DNA from: Paraspadella gotoi
Lineage: Eukaryota; Animalia; Chaetognatha
Direction: 5' to 3'
Assembly (NCBI GenBank): GCA_051294375.1
Contig: JBJCIZ010000358.1
Coordinates: 85,726-103,444, forward strand
DNA length: 17,719 bases
In this document: positions 3,321 through 17,658 of the stretch, piece after piece
How the letters are laid out: each line of letters begins with the position of its first letter
Position numbering within the stretch: the stretch's first letter is position 1
The notes under the pieces: model-generated
Database searches by the model: none
What the model saw: the letters and a program-made list of their open reading frames with translations, nothing else
What the model was told of the DNA's origin: nothing
Position numbers and translations under genes: made by a program

Positions 3321-4197
3321 CTAGTACACACATCTCTCCACGGCAATACCTTTCATTTTAAGAGCGCGATCGAGTTTTCTTCGTCCCTGATTTTTCTTCA
3401 AGCTCTCATGCCGCTTAACAACTAGAATTGCCGTTTCTCTAATCTGTTGATCCTCTTTTCGTAGTTTAACAGCTAAATCATTGGTAGTTTTTATCCCACG
3501 TTCACAACTGTCATTTACTACTGCTAAATTTGAAACAATTTTTTTAAATATTTTGTACCCTTCAAAATCTTCCCATTGAAGAACAGGTTTAAGCAACCAA
3601 TCCATGCAAATATTTTGTCTTTTGAAAATGAATAAAGAATTTTCATTAATTCGTGAACTTAACGTTGTTTGACTTGAAACAGCTTTCATTTCAGGTCGGC
3701 CTAAAGTTAATTTTCCTTTTTCATATTTTATTATTTCTTGAGCAATAGCTTGTTTTTCTTGAGTTTTAACTAAGCCAGAACAGAGGGCTAAAGGTGTTAA
3801 TTCAGCGGTAATATACCATAAGTGTTGGTTCATTTTTTTAAGTACAATATTAGATATTTCATTATCTATTTCTGACCAATGGCATAAATCTTTATATAGC
3901 TTAATGGTGTTATGCGGTGCATCAGCTGCGTTTTTGCAATTAAACCACTGGTATATATATATAATACGATAGCTTTTTCTTCCAAATCAAGAGGAACTTC
4001 ATCTATCAATAAAGCAGTTTTAAAAAGAACTATAATCTTTGCCATCCACCTTGCATTTGAAATTGCTCCAATCTTGCGTATAGGTTTAAATAGTTTTTCG
4101 CAATTAATATCTGCAAAATGTTTTATTTTAACAAAATTTTATTTAGAAACAGAAAAAATAAATAAATCTTACCAATGTTAACTCAATAACTTCTTTA
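3321..4197 (-). pseudogene. C-terminal part of a hAT-superfamily (hATm/hATw-like) transposase, frameshifted, with a 62-bp intron; 5' part lost in the gap
   Basis: Manual translation: KEVIELTL | intron 4172-4111 GTAAG...TTTTGCAG | KPIRKIGAISNARWMAKIIVLFKTALL ... YQWFNCKNAADAPHNTIKLYKDL ... KKMNQHLWYITAELTPLAL ... LAVVNDSCERGIK. GAxxxARWMAK, HLWY and VVNDxxERG are motifs I recognise from this transposase group. Two frameshifts (~4105, ~3960). Confidence 0.8.
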
Positions 4198-10552: not shown

Positions 10553-10586
10553 GCAAGATTTTCAATATATTTTTTTTCGGTTATCA

Positions 10587-10660
10587 TTTTTAGTCGGATC
10601 TGCTTATCAGCAGATTCCAATTCTATAATTCACTTTGTTGGTCTGTTGGTCCCACCCCCA
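10587..10660 (+). mobile_element. HINE/Helentron-like 5' end
   Basis: T run + AGTCGGATCTGCT / AGCAGATTCC stem-loop + CTATAATTCACTTT + GTTGGTCTGTTGGTC tetranucleotide-type repeats, the usual layout of these elements. Confidence 0.55.
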
Positions 10661-11151
10661 AATCTTGTCGGTAAATCATTATTATCATATCAGAACCACA
10701 AATTATGATAAATTATGCAAAAAAAATGTTCGTTAAACCGTAGTAAAAATTCTAAATTTAACTTTAATTAAAATTATAAAAGTGAGGAACGAACAACATA
10801 CTAATGAACATTTATGTATAAAAAAATTTATAATAAATTTTACAATTTACGCAGGAGGCCATATTTATACTACTACTAATCCAATAAATGTTAAAATTTC
10901 AAAAAAATTTTTTGTAAGATTTTTTTGCAGATTTAGATTCGTCATAAAAAGTTGATAGAAAGAAATATAACTCTTTTTTAAAAATTGTTTCATTAAGTTG
11001 ATCAAATTTATAAAAAAGCTATATTTTAAGCCAAAAATTAACTTTTTTATATTAAATATAGTTTTTTTAATTTTTAACCCACTTAATGAAAGAATTGTAG
11101 TCGGGCATTGCCTAGGTTCACCCCGCCTATAAGCATGACACCCTCAGTCCT

Positions 11152-11224
11152 GACCCGGTGGCTCATTGAGTAAAGCCATCAGCTCATGACCATTAGGTAA
11201 CGGGTTCAATCCCAACCCGGTACC
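11152..11224 (+). promoter_or_regulatory. tRNA-derived Pol III internal promoter (copy 1; copy 2 at 11544-11616)
   Basis: A-box-like TGGCTCATTGAG (11159-11170) and B box GGTTCAATCCC (11203-11213) at tRNA spacing; stems too degenerate for a true tRNA. Confidence 0.75.
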
Positions 11225-11247
11225 TACCCCGTGGGAAGCGTGAGGAC

Positions 11248-11331
11248 GGCCGTAAGCCACCTTGGGGGCGTGGCAACCCCTCAAGCCTGGTTCCAAGCCC
11301 AGGACCCGTTCCATTGCTACTAAAGGGGGTT
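11248..11331 (+). ncRNA. Twister-like ribozyme, copy 1 (probably inactive)
   Basis: UAA, P3 CTTGGGGG/CCCTCAAG, P4 CCTGG/CCAGG with loop TTCCAAGC; conserved GC reads AC and GA-GGG reads AA-GGG. Confidence 0.5.
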
Positions 11332-11639
11332 ATAGAAGTTACGGATAGTCATCTTCAGCCCACTTAGCGCCTTGCCCATCCTGTCGAGCGTATTCCAACC
11401 TTCTGATTCCAGGCCCATGGACGTGCCGAAGATTGCTCCCCTCCCTCCACTAGAAGCAGTGCAGGGTGGGTTACAATCTGGGGGGCATATAGTCGGGCAT
11501 TGCCTAGGTTCACCCCGCCTATAAGCATGACTCTTTCAGTTGTGACCCGGTAGCTCATTGAGTAAAGCCATCAGCTTATGACCACTAGGTACCGGGTTCA
11601 ATCCCAACCCGGTACCTACCCTGCGGGAAGAGTGAGGAC

Positions 11640-11724
11640 GGCCGTAAGCCGCCTTGGGGGGCGTGGCAAACCCTCAAGCCTGGTTCCAAGCCCAGGACCC
11701 GTTCCATGTCTGCTAGAGGGGGTT
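11640..11724 (+). ncRNA. Twister-like ribozyme (type P1 layout), copy 2
   Basis: GGCC-G-TAA-GCC-GC-[CTTGGGGG...CCCTCAAG]-CCTGG-TTCCAAGC-CCAGG-A...GCTA-GA-GGG-GGTT, compared with canonical UAA-P2-GC-P3-CCGG-UCCCAAGC-CCGG-A...-GAGGG. P2 pairing is imperfect. Confidence 0.6.
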
Positions 11725-12015
11725 ATAGAAGTTACGGATAGTCATCTTCAGCCCACTTAGCGCCTTATCCTCAGAATTTTTAAAAATGATTTATATTTTC
11801 TTTTATCAACTTTTGACAAGGAATTCAAATCTGTAATCGAAATTAAAAAAAGCTTGTTTTAAAATTTTTTGATTTTATAAGGATAGTAATATATAGTCTG
11901 CTGCGAAAATTGAAGAACATAAAATAAATTTTTTTACAAATTAATGTTTACTGATGGTATGTTGTTCATAATTGACATTTAGTATTTTTGTATGTAACTT
12001 TCACTACGCTCTAAT

Positions 12016-12030
12016 GTCCGTCCGTCCGTC
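12016..12030 (+). repeat. (GTCC)n microsatellite, possibly another HINE remnant
   Basis: GTCCGTCCGTCCGTC read directly. Confidence 0.6.
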
Positions 12031-12241
12031 CCCCATTAGTAGGGGGATCCTAACTCAGTAAGGTGGTTAAGAAATTTGAATTAAGCAGCTGCTCAAACGA
12101 AAATTTAGACATTTTTAAAAAAAATTGAATAGACAAAAAATTTTAATATTACTCCATACTCCATATATTAATTTTTTATTATTTATTTATTAGAGGAAAA
12201 ACGAAATTTTTTTCGCGATTTTACAACATTTATTTTTATAT

Positions 12242-12285
12242 AATGGACAAGTTTTGACTCTAGTTTTCGAGTCTTCATCAGCATT
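12242..12285 (-). ncRNA. Minimal type I hammerhead ribozyme with GAAA->AAAA substitution
   Basis: Minus strand AATG-CTGATGA-A-GACTC-GAAAACTA-GAGTC-AAAAC-TT-GTC-CATT. Confidence 0.8.
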
Positions 12286-12305
12286 GCAAAAGACACTTTC
12301 ACAAA

Positions 12306-12884
12306 CTATCGGCAGTTGCAGAACATGCAACAAACTCGGGCCATCTGTTTAGAGAGGAAGACTGTCTCGTGCTGTCCCATGACCAAAACTTGTTCTCAAG
12401 AGGCATTAGAGAGGCGATTTGCATCAAAGCCCTCGAACCCTCTTTGAACCGTGGAGGACAATTCAAACTCCCTCCAAGCTATGATTCGCTAATCAAAACT
12501 GTGGTAGAGCACCCAACGCCACCTCAGCCGCACGGTGATTCCCCTGTCCCCACTCAACGGGTCAGGTGGAGACCTCCTAGCAGGCAATGGACATCTGATG
12601 CCTCTCCTGAGCCTGCAGCAACTTGGCACGACTCTTCTAGTGCTGAGCGCCGCCCAAAACGACGGCTGCAAGAGGAGGGAGAGGAGTCTGTATCTCCCAT
12701 TTCAAAACAGGCCAGAACAGATATTTGCCCTCCTCACCGTCAGATGAGAAGAGGGCTCTCGGCAGGCCTATCAGGCCAGAGAGATATACAAGTGGCACTT
12801 GGCATTTTTCCAGCCGGATCTTTGCCAGACCCAAATCAATCCCACTCCACCACAATATCCTCTCAGCCCATTACAGGCCAATGA
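12306..12884 (+). pseudogene. C-terminal fragment of a Penelope-like ORF: end of the GIY-YIG endonuclease plus a low-complexity tail
   Basis: LSAVAEHATNSGHLFREEDCLVLSHDQNLFSRGIREAICIKALEPSLNRGGQFKLPPSYDSL matches the SAVxEH..GH...R.I.EA..I...P.LNR..G..L...Y pattern of PLE GIY-YIG domains. Confidence 0.88.
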
Positions 12885-13227
12885 ACCGAGCACATCGGTA
12901 ATGTCCCTCATTTGCCCGGCCAGGGGGGGGGGCCAGCTCATTTTGAGCTCTTTCTCATCTTATTTTTCTCTAAAACATACCTTAGCTATCCCTCACAACT
13001 TATTCTTCCATTTCATATTTCATTCTTTCTATTAAACCAAATTCTCACAAACATTTATTTATTTATTAACTTATGTTATTTTAGTTTTTCACTTTTATTC
13101 TCTGTTGTACATTGCCAAATGTATTGATGTCTCTCTCTCTCTTTCTTTTTCACCAATCTCAATTCACTCACTCTCCTTCCTTTCCCTCACTTTCTCCTGT
13201 CCTAACATCTGACCACTGTTCTTTACT

Positions 13228-14559
13228 TAGAACCAAATTCCGAAAGTCGATCCCAAAACTTTTTTCAGAATATTTTTATATTTTTAGATAGAGAATGACT
13301 GGAACAATGTAAATCTTAAGTCACGTCTAAATTGGCCAATGGGTTTAGAAGAAATAGACCAAAAACAACCAAAATTCCTCTCCATTTTTTCAACATTCTC
13401 GCTTTTTAAGATTCTCGCCGATTCTGACTTCCTTTTTCAAACTTATAATTCCGCAAGTTAATTTTTTTTATTTAAACGAACGAAAGGAATCCATAACTTT
13501 ATTATTTTTTTAATTTTTGGGTAAAAATATATAATTAATTACATTAACATTGTGACACTATGAAAGTGTAATGTCTTGTGAAGCCTGTGAGAGTTAAATA
13601 ATTAAAAATTCGCTTATTTTATTATTGAAAAATAACATCACAGCTCCTTTCAGTAACATCCTGTTCTCTAACATAAAATAATGTTTACTTTTTGCTGATG
13701 GAAAAGAAAGATAAATACTTAGGCTGTGATGGGGTGAATAATATTTTGTAGAATTTTGTAAGCATGCTTGTAATATCAGTCAAGCAAATATTTAAGTGAA
13801 AATAAAATTATATTTTCTTTATCCAAAAACTTTAAATCTTTACTAGAGTACAATTTAGCCTTTTTTCTTTCAGAATCACTAAAAAGAATTTAATTTTCAT
13901 TTATTTTTATGGGGTTTCATTAGTTTTAAAATTCATTATAGTTTTGACTTAGTTTGACACTCACCCTGTAAAGAGGTTTCCGCAAAAATAATTCTAAAAT
14001 TGTAACTTGTATGTGCCCAATGATTATGGCTTCATTTTGGTACTATTGCCATCCCTGTATCTTTGTTCCTTCAAAAGATATTAGGAAAAATCAGTTTTTT
14101 CTTTCAACCTTCCTTTTAATTTCTTTTTAAATAAAAATTTCATGTTGTCAAACCAGACCAATAGACTTTACCACGTTAGTTTACTATGAAGAGTTCGGTC
14201 AATAATGAAAAGAAAAATTTGGAATGCTCTTGAGACAAGACAAGACATACCATAACCCCGTTTGCAATTTTCAAAAAGCAAAATTTCCCGTTCATTTCTA
14301 TAGTAAAAATGAGGTTTGGAAATTCTCCGGAGATGACTAGTGCATTTCCCCTGGCTTGTTTGATATTAAATCCTTTAACAAATGCCATAAGACGAATTTG
14401 ACAAGCTGTTAAGATATAACGCTATCGGAATCGTGCGTTTTCACAACTCTTTTTTACCAGAATTTCTGGCAATCGCATTTGCAATTTGGGTAGTCAGATT
14501 TTAACGGAAATCTCTATTAGAAAAATGTTGAATTTTTTTTAAAGCAAGATTCTTGTCTA
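13228..14559. mobile_element. Non-autonomous DNA transposon (hAT-like), TAGA...TCTA ends, 7-bp TSD
   Basis: CTTTACT at 13221-13227 and 14560-14566; removing the insert restores a PLE 3' UTR collinear with the related copy at ~16915-16970; left end also present at 18-43. Confidence 0.75.
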
Positions 14560-14669
14560 CTTTACTAAATTTCTTTGTTGGAAACTCTCTCACTCTCTCT
14601 CCCTCAATATCTCCCTCCTTCTCTCTCTCCCTTAAACCAATATAAAAAATTTGTGAAATTGTCTTTTTC

Positions 14670-14711
14670 ATGCTGATGAAGACTCGAAAACTAGAGTCGA
14701 AACTTGTCCAT
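14670..14711 (+). ncRNA. Minimal type I hammerhead ribozyme (intact core)
   Basis: ATG-CTGATGA-A-GACTC-GAAAACTA-GAGTC-GAAAC-TT-GTC-CAT; predicted cleavage after C14708. Confidence 0.88.
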
Positions 14712-15659
14712 TATATAAAAATAAATGTTGTTAAATCGCGAAAAAAATTTCGTTTTTCCTCTAATCTATTTCCACCAACAAACGAAAGGATTATCACAAA
14801 TAATTATTTATAAATAAGAAAGGCTAAAAATTTTTTTAGGATTTTTTTATTTTTTAGGTAAGATTCATGAAGCTCGCAAAAAGTTGTCTATACAAAGTAT
14901 AATTCTTTTTTCAATATTTTTATCATAAGTTGGGAGCTGAAAAATTTGAAAAACTATTTATAAATCATCATCTTTTCGATAATTTTATTGCCTTTTTCTT
15001 AAATTTTGACGAAGAAACATAAACATTTTTTGAAAAGTTGTAAGTTATATTTTTTATTATAACTTTTATGGCTCAAATCAGAATCACATCAAAAAAAGTT
15101 AAGATTGATTTAAAAAGAAAATTTTTTTTTTGCAATTAATATCATAATTAAATAAAAAGACGTAATATTATAATTTTGGATACGTAGGCAAGAATAAAAG
15201 CATTAAAATCAAATTATTTTTAAAAAATTCTTTTTTTAACCTGAAAGTAGACTTCAAGACTAAAGTTTTGAAACCCTCGCGCGCCTATTGAATTTAATTT
15301 CATAGTATCACGTTTACATTAGCATTAAACTCGCAATTACCTCAGTGATTGGAATTGACGAAATTGGAATGAAATTTCTGGTGTTGGTAGAGGAGAGTTG
15401 TGTGATTGAGCTGGATATATTAGGTCTTCAAATGGAAAATCGTTGCATCGTGGAAATGAAAGTTTAAATGGAAAAAAACATAAGTTCATGATTTTTACTG
15501 TCAACGCATTTTACTGTATAAATTATTAATTAATTACTTTTTACTCATAATTAATTATAAGTTGATAAAAAAAAAAAAAAAAAAAAAAAAATAAACTTGA
15601 TAAGATAATTGAGGGCAAAATGGTTTTTGGTTCACAACGAATTTTAATTTTTCATAGAA

Positions 15660-15705
15660 ACGTACATGTTTTCGGCTTTGGATGGCAAGCCTATCCTATC
15701 AGCGT
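15660..15705 (-). ncRNA. Hammerhead ribozyme copy with indels
   Basis: Minus strand ACG-CTGATAGGATA-GGCTT-GCCATCCA-AAGCC-GAAAAC-AT-GTA-CGT. Confidence 0.65.
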
Positions 15706-17052
15706 GCAGATGTTTGTGAAATTTGTGGACAGTTTTTTGTGGTGAAAGAAGGGGGAGAGAGAGAGAGAAAGGGCAAACGTTTCCAAACACAGAGTTGAGA
15801 AAGAGAATAGTGGTCAAGGTGGTGAGGACAGGTTAAGAATGAGGACAGATAGAAGATTTTAAGTCTTTGAATAAGAAATGAAATGGTCAGAGTGAGAGAG
15901 ATTGAGAGACGAGAGAGGGAAAGAAGACAGGGAGAGAGAAAATACGTAATATATTTCAAATGGTATAATAAATAAAGGTTTAAATCTAAATAAACGGGTA
16001 TTAACACATTAACTATTTAAAGTAAATAAAGTAAGTTTAAGTGAAGGTGAACAATTGAAATGTGAAAGTGAGAAGAATACACTTTAGTGTAAAGAATTGT
16101 TAAATAATGTGTAGACGAACTAAGAGTTAAGATAGAGCTGTGCAACAGTGAGCTGGCCTCCTTGGTTTGGAACAAATGAAGGCTAGGGCCGATGGGGCTG
16201 GGTCATTGGCGTGTCATTGGTTGAGAAGGACCGAACAAACATTTGTCATTGTCGCGCTAGGAGAGGCCTTTCCTTTCGGAAACATTGTCAAGTGCTACTA
16301 CGAATGTCTCTTTGGCCTGATACGCCCCTGCCAGCTGCGCTCTCCTTCTCGCCTGCTGACGAGGTGGGCGTTTGTCAGTTCTTGCCCAATGCTTTGCGAC
16401 AGGAGTGGCTGAACTCCGCTCCTGGAGCCCGTTGTTTTGGGTCGACGCTCGCTCACCCAGCAGACGGAGGGAATTGAATTGCTAGCAGAGTCGAACATGG
16501 TTCGGCTTCAACTTGTAACTCATCAACCAAATGACACGCCAATCGACCGCAGCCCCAATCGCCGCTTACGCCTCTCATTGGTCCAAACCAAGGGGGGCCA
16601 GCTCACTTTGAGATCTATCTTCAACTTCTTAATTTCTAACATTATTAACAATTCTTTACACTAAAGTGTATCTTCTGACTTTCGAACATTCCATTTTCAC
16701 CTTCACTTAAACTTATTTATTTAATAAATAGTTAATTGTTAAGTACCTGTTTATTAGTTTAAAACTTTATTTGGTTGTACATTTGAAATGTGATTAGCTA
16801 ATTTTCCTCTCTCGACTGTCTGCTGCTCGCTCTCTCTCTCTTCAATCTCTATCACTCTGAACATTTCATATTCTTATTGCAAGATAAAATCTGCTATCTG
16901 TCCGCATGCTTTAAACCCTGTGCCTGCACCACTTGACACTTTTCTTTCTCACTCGCTGTGTTGGAAAACTTTGCCCTATCTCTCTCTCTCTGCTCTCTGC
17001 GTCCCTTCTTTCACAACAAAAACCTGTCGGCAAGAATTTCACAAATCATTTG

Positions 17053-17094
17053 ACGCTGAAGAAGGGCTTGCATCCAAAGCCGAAACATGTACGG
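17053..17094 (+). ncRNA. Minimal type I hammerhead ribozyme with palindromic stem III
   Basis: ACG-CTGAAGA-AG-GGCTT-GCATCCA-AAGCC-GAAAC-AT-GTA-CG; the ACATGT palindrome is typical of dimer-cleaving PLE hammerheads. Confidence 0.82.
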
Positions 17095-17544
17095 GTTTTC
17101 TATGAAAAAATAAAATTCACGTTGTGAACGCAAAAAACGCATTTTGCCTCAATACATATAACCAATGAAAAAAAGGTTATTAACGCACGATAGATAATTG
17201 AAAATAAAACTTGTGTGGCAGGAAAAGTTATGTGAATTAAGCTGGATATAAATTTTTGATGAAATTGTAGGAGCGAAAAGAGTTAAATTAGAAAACCAAC
17301 ACTTTTATTTTAATTATTTAAAAGTTTCCTCTCTCTATCTCTCACTGATAGATTGATTAGGATGTTTTGTTATTTTGGTTAAAATGAATTGATTTATAAA
17401 AATTTTTTAATTAATTTAGAAATCTGCTATGATTTTATAATGTTATGGCAATCTAGTTATGATTCAGGTTATGTTTTTCTCTCTATTTATTTATGAATTT
17501 TCTTGTCCACATTCATCGGCACATTCCAATCTGATTAAATTATC

Positions 17545-17588
17545 GTAGGGCAGATCCGTCATTGTTGGCATAGAACTTCTTTTTTTTC
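17545..17588 (+). mobile_element. HINE-like 3' end matching the 10587 family
   Basis: GCAGATCCG (reverse complement of CGGATCTGC in the 5' subTIR) followed by ~20 nt and a T run. Confidence 0.4.
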
Positions 17589-17658
17589 ATCTCATAACAT
17601 AATTACGTACTTCAACAATAAACATCAATTTGAGCAGCATAAATTTTTATTTTTGCAG

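Follow-up and report, generated by a model that had tools for sequence, protein, structure and literature searches.

We report that a short element in the genome of the chaetognath Paraspadella gotoi is almost certainly a Helenus-type miniature long terminal repeat (LTR) retrotransposon (TRIM), an assignment made because its LTRs contain tRNA-like A and B boxes, and that each LTR carries a motif which, going by its sequence, very probably derives from a twister ribozyme. The twister is predicted to be active in the family, and we consider this activity probable. The element occupies positions 11096 to 11773 of the 17,719-nucleotide stretch analysed here (the window; contig JBJCIZ010000358.1), where it forms a GC-rich island of 678 bp surrounded by AT-rich DNA. 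An earlier note on the window, made from the letters alone, had taken it for a tRNA-headed tandem retrozyme with twisters. The mobile tRNA-headed retroelement and the twister-like motif in each repeat have stood, the non-LTR form proposed there has not, and the idea survives in the form of a plant-type LTR retrozyme.

A miniature LTR retrotransposon with fixed ends

The layout of the element is that of two LTRs enclosing, in this order, a putative primer site, an internal region and a polypurine tract (PPT) (Table 1). Its basis is a direct repeat at 392/393-nt spacing, in which 11098-11268 matches 11490-11660 at 92% identity and 11264-11373 matches 11657-11766 at 95%; aligned LTR against LTR, the focal copy is identical in 259 of 279 columns. 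The head-to-tail repeat described in the earlier note is thus real, and the 1.7-mer that it saw is a normal full element: what seemed to end in mid-unit ends at the LTR end, 11773. The element is short and non-coding, the longest stop-to-stop frame wholly within its 678 bp measuring 71 aa. A short polypurine tract-like stretch, GGGGGGCA, adjoins the 3' LTR, and folding confirmed the long hairpin previously noticed in the internal region.

The ends were read from contigs of the same organism, taken from the public runs X1, X2, X5, X9, X10 and X13 and mapped onto a 971-bp stretch. About 10,500 contigs of X1 and about 11,700 of X2 fitted this stretch; X10 and X13 are small (10 and 1 contigs), and the RNA nature of X9 is a guess only. 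End counts were taken from the best 24 of 2,219 loose-end rows. Among these, unrelated AT-rich flanks precede position 11096 in 88, 93 and 47 contigs (X1, X2 and X5), with a flank agreement of about 0.4, and further left-end contigs, 51 and 28, break at 11095. On the right, 104, 88, 76 and 21 contigs (X1, X2, X5 and X9) diverge behind 11770, their loose letters reading ACA first and then running into unrelated AT-rich flanks. About 100 different flanks per run meet the element at the same two ends, and the ends are therefore fixed, with TG at 11096 and CA at 11773. The family is present in high copy number.

Contigs that join the two sides of the empty site skip 682 bases, that is 678 + 4, in 11 cases in X1, 16 in X2 and 1 in X5, and the palindromic host repeat aligns best with the element and 4 bp removed (score 220, against 212 with 0 bp and 210 with 6 bp). 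The target-site duplication (TSD) is the 4-bp GAAT, a length found in animal Helenus families. The duplication AGAATT suggested earlier exists in this shorter form, the longer one borrowing the element's terminal T and A.

Behind 11373 the focal copy has lost 14 nt, which are present in one X10 contig (11302-11500) and three X9 contigs. In these contigs the missing letters contain the terminal CA of the LTR and then, one base on, TGG, the start of a putative primer-binding site (PBS); the same PBS was not found in the Helenus consensus file. The repeat spacing of intact elements would accordingly be about 406 nt, and the 392 nt given as the unit in the earlier note, correct as a spacing in this copy, is due to the deletion. 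The 3' LTR of the focal copy starts with TA, and position 11489 is G in more than 99% of the depth in X1, X2 and X5, so the family has TG here as well. In X2 the summed contig depth of the LTR exceeds that of the internal region some 4-6-fold, a weak hint at solo LTRs that is not to be read as a copy number. With its LTRs 93% alike and its primer site partly deleted, the focal copy appears old and is probably inactive.

The earlier note had pictured a non-LTR retrozyme that, through rolling-circle reverse transcription, had entered the genome as a tandem of more than one unit with randomly permuted ends. Such an origin would explain the 1.7 units lying head to tail and sits well with a remnant some 500 bp away that resembles a Penelope-like endonuclease; minor end classes could also exist beyond the best 24 of the 2,219 loose-end rows. 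Copy starts and ends are, however, not randomly permuted among the contigs: the same two recur, the best-supported ends in four runs being 11095/11096 and 11770-11773. The family moreover has TG...CA termini, a PPT, a TGG behind the LTR and a TSD of 4 bp, features that animal non-LTR retrozymes lack (PMC7229834). We give this origin next to no credence.

Table 1. Coordinates, within the window, of the element, its parts and the surrounding host features
Feature	Position	Strand	Evidence
Left TSD, GAAT	11092-11095	+	sequence; empty-site joints
5' LTR, TG start, final 7 nt missing in the focal copy	11096-11373	+	contig ends; LTR alignment
tRNA-like segment of 5' LTR, A box 11159, B box 11203, likely Pol III promoter	11152-11225	+	motifs; ARAGORN only at relaxed thresholds
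P5-type twister-like motif of 5' LTR, predicted cut U11253/A11254	11238-11303	+	Rfam scan, variant table, pairing
Internal region, 114 bp here, non-coding	11374-11487	+	X10/X9 contigs
Hairpin in internal region	11430-11479	+	fold
Polypurine-tract-like GGGGGGCA	11480-11487	+	sequence
3' LTR, 286 bp, CA end	11488-11773	+	contig ends
tRNA-like segment of 3' LTR, A box 11551, B box 11595	11544-11617	+	motifs; ARAGORN 'possible pseudogene' at -ps80
P5-type twister-like motif of 3' LTR	11630-11696	+	Rfam scan, pairing, folding, shuffles
Parts of the 3' LTR motif: P2b; GAGGA; linker CGGCCG; U^AA	11631-11633; 11634-11638; 11639-11644; 11645-11647		
Parts of the 3' LTR motif: P2a; GC; P3; P4/L4	11648-11650; 11651-11652; 11653-11678; 11679-11696		
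Irregular 3' LTR hairpin enclosing downstream GAGGG; other strand without cleavage-site AA	11712-11762	+	minimum free energy fold of 11700-11773
Right TSD, GAAT	11774-11777	+	sequence; empty-site joints
Host miniature inverted-repeat transposable element (MITE)-like AT-rich palindromic repeat, element in right arm, approximate limits	10733-12014	.	inverted arms; arm alignment
Intron of phenylalanyl-tRNA synthetase alpha gene, 7.1 kb, element in sense orientation	10553-17658	+	

A tRNA-like segment, and likely promoter, in each LTR

The tRNA-type boxes reported in the earlier note recur in both repeats, as an A-box-like TRGCTCA and a B box, GGTTCAATCC. TRGCT and GGTTC are both present; in box A, the YGG half matches imperfectly. 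ARAGORN found no tRNA at its default threshold and reports the tRNA-like segments only below threshold, under relaxed settings. As had also been noted, the element has no poly(A) tail, and no run of four T (T4) lies within it, the first standing at 11777. Two details concern the B box itself: it lies on the loop side of a hairpin (11190-11225 and 11586-11618) whose 13 bp are perfectly paired in the 3' LTR, and a family variant at 11205 changes its first T to A.

A type-P5 twister-like motif with intact pseudoknots

Each LTR has UAA, GC, an 8-bp P3 and a P4 with loop UUCCAAGC, hallmarks that the earlier note had recognised. It had completed them with a downstream GAGGG, in the register of a P1-type twister, and this part does not hold. 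From sequence and pairing, the motif reads best as type P5, with an upstream GAGGA in use (part names follow PMC8501958, PMC11662667 and the rice twister structure). In copy 2 the upstream GAGGA (11634-11638) goes with two of three P2 pairs, against none of three P2 pairs and one of three P1 pairs with the UAA strand for the downstream GAGGG (11716-11720). The predicted cut, between U11645 and A11646, is the same in the P5 register, and two such cuts would free a unit-length monomer, as had been anticipated.

In the type-P5 register the 3' LTR forms two of three P2 pairs and all pairs of P3 (8/8) and P4 (5/5), together with both pseudoknots, GGA with UCC (3/3) and GC with GC (2/2). The core bases GAGGR, NAA, GC and L4 are complete, in permuted order. 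In the 5' LTR the pseudoknot G at 11259 is mutated to A in this copy and is G in 96.6% of the family depth (X2), in line with the earlier remark that copy 1 has lost conserved Gs. Natural twisters are a useful yardstick here: about 94% of those tested cleaved, with flaws in P1, P2 and a long P3 tolerated and flaws in catalytic bases and pseudoknots not tolerated, and P1 is reported to be dispensable in P1-type twisters (PMC11662667). The catalytic bases and pseudoknots are the twister parts that are intact in the element.

Two other assignments were tried. A P3-type twister formed through 11712-11762 was rejected, its would-be cleavage strand being ACU, without two As, and the Rfam scans gave no hammerhead match in the element.

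Natural relatives, chance expectation and family variation

We searched the 18-mer of the element's P4/L4 in viral and metagenome contigs and obtained 129 matches in 106 distinct contexts, 38 of them with the full twister layout. These 38 natural twisters are related to one another, and the loop and GAGGR counts drawn from them are indicative only. All eight with the loop UUCC have GAGGA, the combination that the element shows with its upstream GAGGA. Among the 30 with the loop UCCC, 27 have GAGGG and three GAGGA; these three C-loop rows (L016, L021 and L101) were parsed in the wrong register, yet are counted in the 38. A 3-nt P2a with an open third pair, as in the element, is found in 17 of the 38. 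By blastn, no relatives of the element itself occur among 132 viral and metagenome loci, only unrelated twisters.

Some of these loci deserve mention in their own right. A eukaryote-like metagenome repeat family (L036, L039, L046, L070-L072, L075, L085, L104, L105, L117 and L118) carries a complete P1-type twister that bears a P5 hairpin and is often preceded by TGGC/TGGT microsatellite-like repeats. Another contig (L082) holds two near-identical P1-type twisters 314 bp apart, possibly a twister tandem repeat.

With P4 held fixed, 46 of 20,000 shuffles yield either register with two P2 pairs, and 283 do so without the P2 condition; the 13-nt P4 core appears in 10 of 20,000 shuffled LTRs. The bare pattern was found in 48 stretches in 596 Gb of prokaryote genomes and in 9 in viral contigs. 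Pairing in P2, P4 and T1 is added in two of the 57, and none is a convincing short-P1 type-P5 twister. The match to a twister is far beyond chance, and we regard a chance origin as unlikely.

Variation within the family points the same way for the core. Setting aside two changes private to copy 1, listed family variants fall on 0 of 28 core positions against 19 of 120 other LTR positions (Fisher p 0.025). A common change, 11256 G>A, present in 118 contigs and 13.5% of the depth, replaces the P2 G.U with A-U, and in P3 a G.U pair becomes G-C through 11281 T>C. Variation is free at the unpaired P2 position 11239 and in the P3 loop. The upstream GAGGA has no listed variants, and the downstream GAGGG region shows subfamily substitutions and indels.

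These data also bear on whether an active twister could use the P1-type register after all, with the downstream GAGGG and the same cut site. GAGGG can pair with the loop UUCC through a wobble, positions 11708-11710 are GGC in most copies, so that P2a pairing is possible at the cost of a 5-nt insertion, and twisters tolerate many flaws (PMC11662667). Direct pairing nevertheless amounts to 0/3 in P2 and 1/3 in P1, the downstream GAGGG sits in a hairpin of its own, its region is variable where the upstream GAGGA is not, and the natural twisters with a UUCC loop use GAGGA in 8/8 cases. This register is very unlikely, and we keep to type P5.

A proposed route through two-LTR cleavage and a circle

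By analogy with plant elements, we propose that the family is a Pol III-driven, Gypsy-mobilised LTR retrozyme, in which the ribozymes of both LTRs would cut and a monomer of about 406 nt would circularise; we judge the chances of this proposal to be even. Pol III would start near 11152 in the 5' LTR and, meeting no T4 inside the element, read through into the 3' LTR. The CGGCCG palindromes of the two LTRs could pair to give a 6-bp helix that completes P1. Because the one-pair P1 would be completed only by pairing of the palindromes, cleavage should need both LTRs in one transcript, and solo-LTR transcripts would be spared. Cuts at both U^A sites would yield the monomer of about 406 nt (392 in the focal copy), which would have no terminal redundancy; circularisation would therefore be needed to rebuild two LTRs. 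A host RNA ligase such as RtcB could ligate the monomer, tRNA-primed reverse transcription round the circle would restore the two LTRs, and a Gypsy integrase would insert the product. Circularisation of this kind has been proposed for plant LTR retrozymes (PMC4918200; PMC7761336).

The dimer step agrees with several energies. The palindrome is calculated at +4.1 kcal/mol as a one-pair hairpin and at -10.7 kcal/mol as a 6-bp dimer, and the strand-swapped dimer lies 18.9 kcal/mol below two monomer twister folds. In axolotl retrozymes, hammerheads with a one-pair helix and a palindromic tetraloop cleave better as dimers (PMC7229834). For the element, the one-pair palindromic P1 predicts poor cleavage with a single LTR and good cleavage with two; dimer gating would then have evolved twice, in hammerheads and in twisters.

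A number of observations weigh against an active twister and the route built on it. Rfam gave no match at 11098-11771 when the whole window was scanned, and narrowed scans scored Twister-P5 at 16.1-16.8 bits, where the gathering score is 37.6. Of the P1 that belongs to a type-P5 twister there is only the palindrome CGGCCG, one pair and a tetraloop, and the linker of 6 nt compares with 17-29 nt in all seven natural P5 twisters recovered. In a pseudoknot-free model the monomer twister fold (3' copy) lies 12 kcal/mol above the minimum, and the dimer twister fold still lies 7 kcal/mol per site above it. The probability of P2 in that model is 0.0, against 0.65-0.98 in 7/7 natural P5 twisters; it is also at most 0.05 in five of seven natural P1 twisters tested. 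A model made from the seven natural P5 twisters matches both copies (25 bits), in a different register and mostly through P4, and is no independent support for a twister. The twister descriptor was written post hoc, with the sequence already seen; the variant table is short of three rows, word-based contig mapping favours conserved parts, and the stem changes among family variants are one-sided, with no two-sided compensation seen. As for the route, none of the listed contig runs is recorded as RNA, cleavage and circle are predicted, and the primer tRNA and the autonomous Gypsy partner of the element are putative.

The score below the Rfam threshold, the almost absent P1 and an active fold that is not the predicted minimum would all suit an ordinary Helenus TRIM in which the twister-like segment is a captured inactive relic, for example of a tRNA-headed short interspersed element (SINE) or an RTE 5' end inserted in an ancestral LTR, or a tRNA-like structure kept for some other reason. 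SINE capture was proposed by Kojima as the origin of Helenus (PMC10886601), twisters occur at RTE 5' ends (PMC8501958), and of ARAGORN's sub-threshold calls across the window the best one covers 11610-11702, a 'possible pseudogene' that resembles a tRNA-Tyr with a long arm. That tRNA reading of the ribozyme stretch is itself disfavoured, with 2/5 T-stem pairs and non-canonical loops lacking U33 and R57, and we retain it only as part of the relic explanation. The common 11256 G>A, moreover, breaks the anticodon-like stem while strengthening P2 of the twister, and no listed family variant touches the 28 core positions while loops vary. A relic is, in our view, distinctly unlikely.

A somewhat stronger competitor, though still an unlikely one, keeps the twister active and has it form the 3' end of the RNA. 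The cut would fall at the 3' LTR site alone, in place of an oligo(T) terminator, giving a linear Pol III RNA of about 11152-11645 with an R region of about 100 nt, ordinary strand transfer and no circle. The absence of a T4 terminator from the LTR fits this well, several published Helenus LTRs having a stretch of Ts that closely follows the tRNA-like part (by eye, in the supplement), and Cassandra transcripts span promoter to promoter with short redundancy (PMC10886601); strict TG...CA ends likewise suit standard LTR chemistry. With LTRs identical in sequence, however, sparing the 5' site requires context-dependent folding, and a strand-swapped dimer would be expected to cut both sites.

Comparison with known systems

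Helenus TRIMs (TRIMp3; Kojima 2024, PMC10886601) share with the element a size under 1.3 kb, the lack of coding sequence, two LTRs, a tRNA-like A/B segment, a PBS start (putative in the element), a PPT, a 4-bp TSD (in animal families), a Gypsy partner (likewise putative here) and probable solo LTRs. Unlike these TRIMs, the element has a twister-like motif after the tRNA-like part and an LTR without a T-run terminator. The word 'twister' is absent from the main text of the Helenus paper, and a search of its consensus file with six 8-mers from the twister P4/L4 produced nothing that looked like a twister, though line breaks may mask a match. The proposal opens to testing the way in which the RNA ends of Pol III TRIMs are set, a matter that the paper treats without experimental support (PMC10886601).

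Two wasp LTRs of that collection, Helenus-2_SyJa-LTR and Helenus-2_SyUm-LTR, contain by eye a hammerhead-core-like stretch, CTGATGAG...GAAAC, 3' of the tRNA-like part, on which PMC10886601 makes no remark. Because these two LTRs hold such a stretch, TRIMs with ribozymes may form a class that recurs and has been overlooked.

Plant LTR retrozymes (Cervera et al. 2016, PMC4918200) are likewise non-autonomous, with a ribozyme in each LTR, PBS and PPT, a 4-bp TSD and a Gypsy-type partner, the PBS and the partner being putative in the element. They are plant elements with type III hammerheads, a tRNA-Met PBS and circles of 600-1000 nt; the element differs in its animal host, an internal tRNA-derived promoter, a predicted unit of about 406 nt, a circle that is itself predicted, and a twister-class motif in each LTR where the plant definition has a type III hammerhead. 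A short repeat with one ribozyme per unit is what the element shares with metazoan non-LTR retrozymes (PMC7229834; bioRxiv 10.64898/2026.07.22.740005) and with schistosome repeats that include a tRNA part. The metazoan non-LTR retrozymes consist of hammerhead units in tandem, lack LTR, PBS and PPT, have longer TSDs and are tied to Penelope. The element is no tandem array of this kind, and its TSD does not exceed 4 bp.

Among twisters, type P5 (Rfam RF02684) shares the order P2b-GAGGR-P1-UAA-P2a-GC-P4/L4, the pseudoknots and the U/A match between loop and GAGGA; the element differs from RF02684 in its 6-nt palindromic P1 (17-29 nt in the seven natural examples), its 26-nt P3, its low score and its place in an LTR. 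Twister variants at the 5' end of RTE/Perere-3 long interspersed elements (Liu et al. 2021, PMC8501958) share a twister-class RNA with an unusual P1; those elements are autonomous and non-LTR, with one 5' ribozyme whose P1 is completed by the TSD.

Retrozymes are described as hammerhead elements, with LTRs in plants and without them in animals (PMC7229834; bioRxiv 10.64898/2026.07.22.740005), and LTR retrozymes as plant hammerhead elements (PMC6765202, PMC5680766, PMC10085705). Full-text literature searches, which covered few subscription papers, listed no twister-bearing LTR element and no animal LTR retrozyme. We therefore advance, only tentatively and as something we would sooner doubt than assert, that this may be the first LTR retrozyme from an animal and also the first retrozyme built on a twister: a Pol III TRIM whose LTR twisters, with their one-pair palindromic P1, would cut only when two of them swap strands, so that circles of about 406 nt would arise from full-length and not from solo-LTR transcripts, to be reintegrated by the Gypsy machinery. 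If true, an animal TRIM with a tRNA promoter and a twister in its LTR would break both retrozyme rules, the class of ribozyme would be interchangeable, and a genomic twister would gain a concrete job in an LTR element.

Host locus and neighbouring features

The element sits in a host MITE-like repeat whose inverted arms pair 10807-10864 with 11891-11948 and 10886-10986 with 11775-11875; many copies of this repeat without the insert occur among the contigs. The repeat in turn lies in an intron of the phenylalanyl-tRNA synthetase alpha gene (FARSA). The exon at 10310-10552 matches PF01409 and animal FARSA, and the next FARSA exon, after 17658, is a weak tblastn match (E 0.02-0.06) but stands in sequence order. 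A nematode affinity suggested by FARSA protein length found no support: nematode FARSA has its additional residues at the N terminus, and the nearest matches, which group weakly, carry an insertion within the protein. The 7.1-kb intron starts with GC, not GT, at 10553, and is probably a GC-AG intron packed with repeats.

Within a 2.6-kb unit bounded by 96-nt inverted repeats of 98% identity (12189-12284 and 14670-14765), a frame at 12264-12470 (+) resembles the GIY-YIG endonuclease at the C terminus of a Penelope-like element; a Pfam search of this frame gave no match. Nested inverted repeats at 15723-17033 and 16029-16718 are probably further MITE-like elements. On the other strand, an open frame of 221 aa at 3321-3986 (-), with no Pfam match, looks like a transposase fragment by impression only.

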